DNA of 64,000 bases from assembly GCF_049969415.1 (NCBI RefSeq), contig NZ_JBMFOX010000003.1:1-64000 (forward strand), read 5' to 3'. How positions within the stretch are numbered: the stretch's first letter is position 1; each line of letters opens with the position of its first letter. This DNA is from Candidatus Hadarchaeum sp. (lineage in GTDB: Archaea; Hadarchaeota; Hadarchaeia; Hadarchaeales; Hadarchaeaceae). The notes under the pieces are model-generated. The model made no database searches and was not told where the DNA came from. It worked only from the letters and a program-made list of their open reading frames with translations. A program made the position numbers and the translations under genes. Below are positions 26,535 to 51,169 of the stretch, piece by piece.

Positions 26535-26646
26535 TGGCGGGCCCGGTGGGATTCGAACCCACGACCGATCGGTTAGCTCCCAATCGACCGTTAAGAGCCG
26601 ATTGCTTTTGGCCGGAAACCCGACTGCCAGACTGAGCCACGGGCCC
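26535..26646 (-). tRNA. tRNA-Lys(CTT) with two introns (22/23 and 37/38)
   Basis: Removing 26607-26623 and 26574-26591 gives GGGCCCGTGGCTCAGTCTGGCAGAGCAATCGGCTCTTAACCGATCGGTCGTGGGTTCGAATCCCACCGGGCCCGCCA; BHB motif at both introns. Confidence 0.93.
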
Positions 26647-45150: not shown

Positions 45151-45287
45151 AGCCCGGTGGGGTAGACCGACTGGGGTCGGGCCCAATGGTCAATCCTGCG
45201 GGCCTTTGGAGCCTGCGACGGCGGAGGGCAATAACCCGCCGAATTCGAACGTCGACGGGTCGACCGAATTTCCGCCCCGGGCTACCA
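45151..45287 (+). tRNA. tRNA-Gln(TTG) with three introns (15/16, 53/54, 59/60)
   Basis: Removing 45166-45186, 45225-45243 and 45250-45270 gives AGCCCGGTGGGGTAGTGGTCAATCCTGCGGGCCTTTGGAGCCTGCGACGGCGGTTCGAATCCGCCCCGGGCTACCA; A1-U72 pair as in archaeal tRNA-Gln. Confidence 0.92.
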
Positions 45288-46946: not shown

Positions 46947-47102
46947 ATAACCACCGCTTTAACTAGGTGAAGTACCATTTAGACGGTTTCGGAACGCCGG
47001 AGCATGGGCACTGAGTTTGTTCTCAGGGCGAGTTTCCAAAAAATGGACTAGGAAGTAGGCCAATATCAAGGCTTTTTTATCCTTTCGAAGTAGTAATCTT
47101 GT

Positions 47103-47235
47103 AGCCCCGTGGGGTAGACCCGCCGCTGGCGGGGCCCATCGGTCAATCCTGGCGGGCACCAGCTGGCCGCAATCTGGACCCGCTGACCCCGGTTCGAAAT
47201 CGACAGCGTCGACGGGAATCCGGGCGGGGCTACCA
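47103..47235 (+). tRNA. tRNA-Gln(CTG) with three introns (15/16, 32/33, 59/60)
   Basis: Removing 47118-47139, 47158-47172 and 47199-47218 gives AGCCCCGTGGGGTAGCGGTCAATCCTGGCGGGCTCTGGACCCGCTGACCCCGGTTCGAATCCGGGCGGGGCTACCA. Confidence 0.92.
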
Positions 47236-47320
47236 TTTTTCAGAAAAATAAGTCTACTCGCTGGAAATCGTCTGGAGAGGAGGGACAAAATTATAAAAAA
47301 AAGGAAGTCGCGCGGGGAGC

Positions 47321-50961: not shown

Positions 50962-51094
50962 CTGACTGCGGGATTGCTGAGGTGTCAGTCCTTTTGTGTT
51001 TATAAAAAAGAAGACTTTTGAAGTAGCTATGGTTTTTTTGAAGGTTAAAAATTCAAATTACATCCGGACCATAATTTCTTAACCGATGATAAGG

Positions 51095-51169
51095 GGCCAG
51101 GGCCGGGATTTGAACCCGGGACGCAGGCTCCACAGGCCCGAATGTTAACCAAGCTACACCACCCTGGCC
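51095..51169 (-). tRNA. tRNA-His(GTG), intron-less, G-1 encoded
   Basis: G-GCCAGGGTGGTGTAGCTTGGTTAACATTCGGGCCTGTGGAGCCTGCGTCCCGGGTTCAAATCCCGGCCCTGGCC. Confidence 0.95.

Follow-up and report, generated by a model that had tools for sequence, protein, structure and literature searches.

Does an archaeal genome in which standard tRNA finders report no tRNA-Gln lack such genes, or are the genes interrupted to the point of being passed over? The question is raised by two loci in the window, which is the whole 64,000-nucleotide stretch analyzed here, from contig C3 of a Candidatus Hadarchaeum sp. assembly (1.47 Mb in 138 contigs, 95% complete, 53.9% G+C). We consider it highly probable that these loci are two functional tRNA-Gln genes, tRNA-Gln(CTG) and tRNA-Gln(TTG), each with three short BHB-type introns that would putatively be cut by EndA and joined by RtcB.

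Two interrupted genes and their restored tRNAs

The first-pass annotation had placed introns of 22, 15, and 20 nt at positions 15/16, 32/33, and 59/60 of the CTG gene, and the motif scan together with the restored tRNA reproduces these lengths and positions exactly (Table 1). The scan motif consisted of a 4-nt exon strand and two bulge nucleotides, the cut, and an intron ending in the complementary 4 nt and two bulge nucleotides; the helices that had been quoted (GGGT/GCCC, GCGG/CCGC, and TTCG/CGGG) correspond to its 4-bp central helices, in which the 5′ exon pairs with the 3′ portion of the intron. Two intron positions, 15/16 and 59/60, are indeed common to the CTG and TTG genes some 1.8 kb apart, and the stems of these shared introns differ in sequence precisely as had been described (CCGAC/GTCGG versus CCCGCC/GGCGGG; GTCGA/TCGAC versus TCGAC/GTCGA). 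The two genes are separated by 1,815 nt, with starts 1,952 nt apart, and a gene for an Mrp/NUBPL-type ATPase lies between them; its closest named relatives, at 73-74% identity, belong to Candidatus Hadarchaeum yellowstonense YNP_45, a Hadarchaeum sp., and a Hadesarchaea MAG, which places the organism in the Hadarchaeota, probably in Hadarchaeum itself.

Table 1. Coordinates of the two tRNA-Gln genes in the window, their parts, and the four-intron loci of relatives
Feature	Position	Strand	Detail or basis
tRNA-Gln(CTG), 3 introns	47103-47235	+	in-silico splicing, BHB-motif scan
TATA-like box TTTTTTAT	47073-47080	+	23-30 nt upstream of CTG gene; read from sequence
CTG exon 1, nt 1-15	47103-47117	+	acceptor 5′ strand, D-stem 5′ strand, A14 G15
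CTG intron 1, 22 nt, position 15/16	47118-47139	+	A + CCCGCC-GCT-GGCGGG hairpin + GCCC + AT
CTG exon 2, nt 16-32	47140-47157	+	
CTG intron 2, 15 nt, position 32/33	47158-47172	+	A + CC-AGCT-GG + CCGC + AA
CTG exon 3, nt 33-59	47173-47198	+	anticodon CTG inside
CTG intron 3, 20 nt, position 59/60	47199-47218	+	A + TCGAC-AGC-GTCGA + CGGG + AA
CTG exon 4, nt 60-73 + encoded CCA	47219-47235	+	
Five-T run immediately 3′ of CCA	47236-47240	+	read from sequence
tRNA-Gln(TTG), 3 introns	45151-45287	+	in-silico splicing, BHB-motif scan
TTG exons	45151-45165, 45187-45224, 45244-45249, 45271-45287	+	
TTG intron 15/16, 21 nt	45166-45186	+	
TTG intron 53/54, 19 nt	45225-45243	+	
TTG intron 59/60, 21 nt	45250-45270	+	
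Four-intron TTG loci of relatives	L012:784-938, L013:785-940, L050:4490-4643(-), L052:589-742, L053:2610-2762(-), L105, L106, L107		

Removing the introns by script yields two 76-nt cloverleaf sequences, identified by ARAGORN as tRNA-Gln(ctg) and tRNA-Gln(ttg), with 20 of 20 scored stem pairs intact. Left unspliced, neither gene receives an ARAGORN call or an Rfam match even at E up to 10; all that the two programs report in the 64-kb window is a tRNA-His (51093-51168, minus strand) and one intron-bearing tRNA (26538-26646, minus strand). An intron-removal solver assigned the Gln genes cloverleaf scores of 26.95 and 26.45, against 25-28 for intron-less tRNAs of the same genome, while the best of 150 random genomic 130-mers reached 13.4 and the best of 100 gene shuffles 14.3, with none in either control set (0/150 and 0/100) reaching 20. 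BHB-like matches alone are frequent in GC-rich sequence—the motif scan returns dozens per gene—and what stands above chance is the restored tRNA together with its conservation in relatives, not the matches alone.

The ends of the CTG gene are equally regular: its acceptor strands match, and the discriminator A is followed by an encoded CCA. By its position, the TATA-like box 5′ of the gene fits a putative archaeal promoter, and the five-T run after it is likely a terminator. Elsewhere in the assembly, none of the 48 Rfam tRNA matches (45 over the cut-off) is a tRNA-Gln. An ARAGORN tRNA-Gln on contig C4 with a 304-nt "intron" was rejected; it lies inside a long ORF, its "mature" form would have 98 nt, and it has no Rfam match. 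As judged from these predictions, the 95%-complete assembly has no credible tRNA-Gln gene other than the CTG and TTG genes.

It is conceivable that the two loci are decaying pseudogenes, or carry inserts that are never removed, and that glutamine is decoded by tRNA genes missing from an assembly which is, after all, incomplete, in 138 contigs, and short of about nine expected anticodons by Rfam. We regard this as extremely improbable. Decay is hard to reconcile with stem pairing that is fully intact after splicing, with a TATA-like box, encoded CCA, and T run all in place where no other tRNA-Gln was found, and with a layout that has been kept, with compensatory changes, in five species of the genus and in six other genera.

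The Rfam search recovers no tRNA for Phe, Tyr, Trp, Lys-CTT, Glu-TTC, Thr-GGT, or Arg-TCG, and one of three expected CAT genes. Some of the missing tRNAs may be hidden by several introns, as the Gln genes are, or may lie on unassembled DNA. The intron-bearing tRNA at 26538-26646 of the window is a 109-nt Rfam match (44.9 bits) with two inserts of approximately 17-18 nt, in the D-loop and the anticodon loop. Its anticodon is ambiguous: ARAGORN reads Arg(ccg) and the solver GCT, and by eye CTT (Lys), a tRNA otherwise missing from the assembly, fits too. A rough census of 47 genes (the 45 Rfam matches over the cut-off and the two Gln genes) predicts introns in 18, with two introns in four genes and three in the Gln genes only; the census solver, which uses an explicit cloverleaf score, is unvalidated, and its calls at C6:45731, C87:423, and window 26538-26646 are doubtful. 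Adjacent tRNA-Ile(GAT)/tRNA-Ala(TGC) pairs occur on very short contigs (C136:227-381 and C74:2216-2445). This pairing is the arrangement found in the spacers of bacterial rRNA operons, and contigs C136 and C74 are probably bacterial contamination of the bin.

Junction geometry and predicted splicing enzymes

All six introns of the two genes share the same core: a central helix with four of four positions paired, an inner hairpin of 2-6 bp, and a cut two nucleotides into each bulge. They differ in the outer helix, which has 5 bp at CTG 59/60 and 3 bp at TTG 53/54, would be the T-stem at TTG 59/60 once the 53/54 intron had been removed, and is absent or reduced to 1 bp in both 15/16 introns and in 32/33. 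On this predicted geometry the six comprise three strict motifs and three of the relaxed HBh′ form. Within the CTG gene, intron 1 pairs its GCCC with the exon GGGT and folds locally into exactly a 4-bp helix, 3-nt bulge, and 6-bp hairpin, with no outer helix h (relaxed HBh′). Intron 2, whose CCGC pairs with the exon GCGG, has a weak inner hairpin (2 bp) and an h of 1 bp, and its local fold keeps the 4-bp helix with the bulge shifted. Intron 3, pairing CGGG with the exon TTCG, is a full hBHBh′ motif in which the 5-bp T-stem serves as the outer helix. Across both genes, local folding returned the exact combination of 4-bp helix, 3-nt bulge, and hairpin in two of the six introns and the central helix in all six (in one case with 3 of 4 bp). 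The minimum-energy fold of the whole pre-tRNA did not recover the three motifs, and its energy was not unusual (z -1.49 and -1.54).

Each gene would be transcribed as a pre-tRNA of 133 nt (CTG) or 137 nt (TTG). At every junction the last six exon nucleotides—the 4-nt helix strand and two bulge nucleotides—would face the complementary 4 nt close to the intron's 3′ end. With a small hairpin formed by the mid-intron sequence, both cut sites would be presented in 3-nt bulges. EndA would cut at the bulges, and RtcB would then join the four exons into a 76-nt tRNA. Transcription, the exact bonds cleaved, splicing order, and intron history are all inferred from sequence.

The assembly encodes both enzymes. 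RtcB ligase is matched by PF01139 at 594.6 bits, and EndA by PF01974 at 115.2 bits in a single 179-aa ORF (contig C9, 25337-25873), the only PF01974 match at E up to 0.01. A second EndA, whether a beta subunit or a three-unit fusion, was not found when the EndA protein was searched against the assembly at E up to 10, where it retrieves only itself; a beta subunit may be too divergent for this search, or may lie on an unassembled contig. A 367-aa ORF (L031:1786-2889, contig C9) follows the EndA stop codon with no intervening base, and in it motifs resembling those of class I aminoacyl-tRNA synthetases (...HLGH..., ...KMSSS...) can be seen by eye. The closest solved relatives of EndA are the fused Methanopyrus kandleri enzyme (5x89, E 7.8e-50) and the M. 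jannaschii alpha4 enzyme. To the latter it aligns end to end in phmmer, with a length difference of two residues, and its C-terminal 61 residues (119-179) match M. jannaschii residues 111-171 without a gap. Five extra residues that precede the catalytic His in the EndA of ARMAN-2 are absent here.

These details matter for substrate range. In the portion of Kaneta et al. (2018; PMC5829648) drawn on here, broad-specificity EndA types are described as carrying an inserted specificity loop (L1, L2, or L3), alpha-type EndA is said normally to need the strict motif, and cleavage of relaxed motifs is assigned to the (alpha-beta)2 and epsilon2 types. The same portion attributes an L3 loop to the enzyme of Hadesarchaea YNP_N21. 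The EndA analyzed here is gap-free over the M. jannaschii residues named above, and may or may not have such a loop. It could be proposed that relaxed noncanonical introns, up to four per tRNA in a sister genus, are spliced by a single plain alpha4-type EndA with no insertion relative to that of M. jannaschii; we put this forward tentatively, and consider it more doubtful than probable by a wide measure. If true, a broad substrate range would have arisen here without the known specificity loops or subunit changes, and the highest intron count of any known tRNA gene would belong to this lineage.

Intron distribution, covariation, and history in Hadarchaeota

The conservation of the layout was assessed in 66 genomes of the phylum, from which the Gln loci were taken and their intron positions solved by script. 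For three CTG genes (L014, L048, and L049) the solver failed, and positions were read from an alignment and by eye; it also misplaced the intron of G031, which it reported at "11". Spliced in silico, the Gln genes of relatives were called tRNA-Gln by ARAGORN in 65 of 65 cases, and in 6 of 6 more.

Genera and families are referred to here by database codes (g and f), g1 being the code of the genome that contains the window and g8 that of a sister genus. The three-intron CTG layout of the window occurs in 19 of 39 genomes (g1 5, g3 1, g4 1, g5 2, g8 7, g9 3), followed by 15/16 only in 12 (g11 and families f2, f4, and f5), 15/16 with 32/33 in four (g2 1, g9 3), and no intron in four (G006 of g1 and three of g10). 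TTG genes are more varied. Among 35 genomes, five of g1 have the window's combination of 15/16, 53/54, and 59/60; eight of g8 have four introns (15/16, 20/21, 53/54, and 59/60); one, G009 of g3, has 15/16, 20/21, and 59/60; six from various genera have two introns, the second lying at 25/26 in G015; ten, again from various genera, have one; and five have none (G053 of g8, G022, G016, G031, and G034). The same layout of three and three introns was seen at loci L033-L035, from Candidatus Hadarchaeum yellowstonense YNP_45, a Hadarchaeum sp., and a Hadesarchaea MAG, which, as probable duplicates, do not enter the counts.

The four-intron tRNA-Gln(TTG) genes are 153-156 nt long and belong to eight g8 species (G021, G014, G049, G052, G047, G045, G055, and G048). 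ARAGORN calls all eight as Gln after splicing in silico, and their hairpins differ between species. The published maximum for archaeal tRNA genes is given as three introns in the parts of PMC4033280 and PMC8450103 consulted. Our literature search found no archaeal four-intron tRNA, and supplementary gene lists (for YNP_N21 and Asgard genomes) may contain such genes.

The first-pass annotation had also proposed that selection preserves intron structure, and suggested aligning orthologous loci to look for covariation. That alignment has now been run, and the intron helices prove to be conserved with compensatory changes. In 23 CTG genes, pairing over the four helices that belong to introns 15/16 and 32/33 reaches 94.3%, against 27-48% when partner columns are slid. 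Cells changed on both sides number 27, versus 8.2 in shuffles, and 0 of 500 shuffles reach 27. Double changes occur in 6 of 16 pairs, including three of five in the 15/16 hairpin, where pair 19-30 is AU in 8 genes, GC in 6, CG in 5, and GU in 2, and all three in the 32/33 hairpin, although the latter is paired only in 79% of cases. The central helices hardly vary, as expected because one of their strands is exon. At 59/60, pairing reaches 98.7% across 19 genes, and a single hairpin pair is compensatory (GC 7, AU 6). The number of double-changed pairs does not exceed shuffles in either alignment (67 and 193 of 500 shuffles reach it), and some caution is warranted in general, since related sequences can beat shuffles without structure and a structure derived from the rows themselves partly beats slid controls for that reason. 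Structure appears, then, to have been kept while sequence changed, as had been claimed, with covariation that is thin at 59/60 and with kinship among the sequences to be borne in mind.

Might the introns have work of their own, either as RNA-modification guides like C/D-box introns or as protection from integrating mobile elements? A protective role of tRNA introns against mobile elements is an idea present in the literature, and the persistence of introns over long evolutionary distances, as with 15/16, would suit a function of either kind. A C/D-box guide would need more length than the 15-22 nt of these introns. What is conserved, moreover, is pairing alone and not loop sequence, and close relatives do without: TTG genes in g8 have zero, two, or four introns, and the CTG genes of G006 and g10 have none. 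We consider such a function very unlikely.

The distribution also bears on when each intron arose. Position 32/33 is occupied in 23 of 39 CTG genes versus 0 of 35 TTG genes, and 53/54 in 13 of 35 TTG genes versus 0 of 39 CTG genes. An intron at 32/33 has also been reported from a methanogen tRNA-Pro. The 15/16 intron occurs in families f1, f2, f4, and f5, and the others (32/33, 53/54, and 59/60) were seen in f1 only. Presence in four families points to 15/16 being an old, order-wide intron. By outgroup comparison on database ranks, we infer that 32/33 in the CTG gene, 53/54 in the TTG gene, and 59/60 are later gains within f1. This agrees with the original suggestion that the third intron was gained independently in each gene, 32/33 being confined to CTG and 53/54 to TTG with neither outside f1, and gain being told from loss solely by database family and genus codes. 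A species tree of RtcB (37 rows, quick method) was set aside; it placed f2, f4, and f5 inside f1 and split g8 and g9, contradicting the database ranks, and several of the RtcB genes are interrupted or cut. In G009 (contig C11), G034 (C3), G037 (C5), and G039, the RtcB match falls into two parts, roughly 100 aa at the N terminus and roughly 385 aa at the C terminus. A single open frame of 941-972 aa holds both parts in G034 and G037, and a frame of 874 aa holds the larger part in G009; in G039 the parts are on different contigs. An intein insertion would look like this.

Intron loss occurs as well. The 59/60 intron is absent from three of six g9 species, CTG genes are intron-less in G006 and g10, and the TTG gene is intron-less in G053. 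G006 (L027, genus g1) is peculiar in other respects: its TTG gene has the 20/21 intron only, and the D arms of its Gln genes look like those found in other families, unlike the D arms typical of g1. These genes may have been replaced wholesale.

How the CTG and TTG genes came to share 15/16 and 59/60 is a separate matter. Separate insertion into each gene, for example by the intron transposition documented in Thermoproteales (in the parts of PMC4090602 and PMC4033280 cited here), would explain why the window's two 15/16 introns and two 59/60 introns differ in hairpin sequence, and why 59/60 introns form two distinct lineages, CTG-type and TTG-type, each conserved in g1 and g8. In several relatives, however, the 15/16 introns of the two genes are identical (G056, G020, G009, and G030) or nearly so (G037), and in G056 the whole 3′ module is shared; such identity between the Gln genes indicates gene conversion. 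Separate insertion is also disfavored by a blastn-short search of the six introns against the whole assembly, which found no copies elsewhere and, as best other matches, only stretches of 13-19 nt; three that were inspected (C3:62062, C38, and C9) lie in coding DNA. The transposed intron families of Thermoproteales, said to have been described by Fujishima and colleagues in 2010, reportedly place near-identical introns in tRNA genes of different identity. Near-identical introns in tRNA genes of different identity were not found within this genome; the only identical introns were those shared by the CTG and TTG genes in certain relatives. We judge separate insertion unlikely. The shared introns would be better explained by common descent and gene conversion than by selection on separate insertions, with the Gln genes exchanging segments.

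In G056 (L051:1717-1846(-) and L051:3175-3287(-)) the two Gln genes differ only in the anticodon arm and the 32/33 intron. They are identical on the 5′ side, over exon 1, the 15/16 intron, and the D arm, and again on the 3′ side, over the T arm and its 59/60 intron. The pair looks like the outcome of recent gene conversion or duplication between the genes.

Comparison with known multi-intron tRNA genes

BHB tRNAs with several introns have long been known, and disrupted tRNA genes have already been published for Hadesarchaea. In Thermoproteales (Pyrobaculum, Thermofilum, and Caldivirga) tRNA genes with several introns are described in the part of PMC4090602 considered, as in P. islandicum tRNA-Pro(UGG), with introns at 25/26, 37/38, and 56/57. 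The genes in the window are like those, as portrayed there, in having up to three short BHB or relaxed-BHB introns at noncanonical positions that are removed by EndA (here by prediction). The list of positions in that source, which ends in "etc.", includes 53/54, 59/60, and 20/21, and does not include 15/16 or 32/33. Unlike Thermoproteales, the organism belongs to the phylum Hadarchaeota and not Thermoproteota, and a single alpha-type EndA was found in place of an alpha-beta pair; neither Gln gene has a 37/38 intron, and no sign was seen of one intron spread over unrelated tRNA genes of the assembly.

A closer parallel is Hadesarchaea YNP_N21, of the same phylum, for which disrupted tRNA genes, a marked rise in disruption, and an alpha4-type EndA are reported in the portion of Kaneta et al. 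(2018) drawn on, a summary of one genome. Among Asgard archaea, the lineages Atabeyarchaeia and Freyarchaeia have intron-rich tRNA sets, with introns in 92-95% of tRNA genes according to the part of PMC11291895 consulted, in contrast to the rough 18 of 47 in this different lineage. Methanopyrus kandleri pre-tRNA-Glu(UUC) carries a relaxed HBh′ intron in the D-loop together with a canonical intron, as outlined in PMC5829648. This is likewise a relaxed D-loop intron in a non-TACK archaeon, and one whose enzyme is the closest solved relative of the EndA found here, although M. kandleri differs in having an alpha-beta heterotetrameric enzyme and two introns in the tRNA gene in place of three. Outside Archaea, nuclear tRNA genes of the red alga Cyanidioschyzon merolae have up to three BHB introns, for which stepwise splicing, shown by RT-PCR, is reported in the part of PMC3728597 considered; three introns are distributed over the D region, anticodon loop, and T-loop in both systems, but C. 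merolae is a eukaryote and one of its introns lies at 37/38.

The genes in the window are a further, well-conserved example of a known gene type, and nothing is changed in what is known of how BHB introns work. They do raise a biochemical question, namely how a single alpha-type EndA handles junctions without an outer helix. The orthologue set—39 CTG and 35 TTG genes from one phylum, with zero to four introns—offers a clean small system for studying intron gain, loss, and copying. Both Gln tRNAs are missed here by standard tRNA finders, and automatic annotation would wrongly report tRNA-Gln as absent from this organism.
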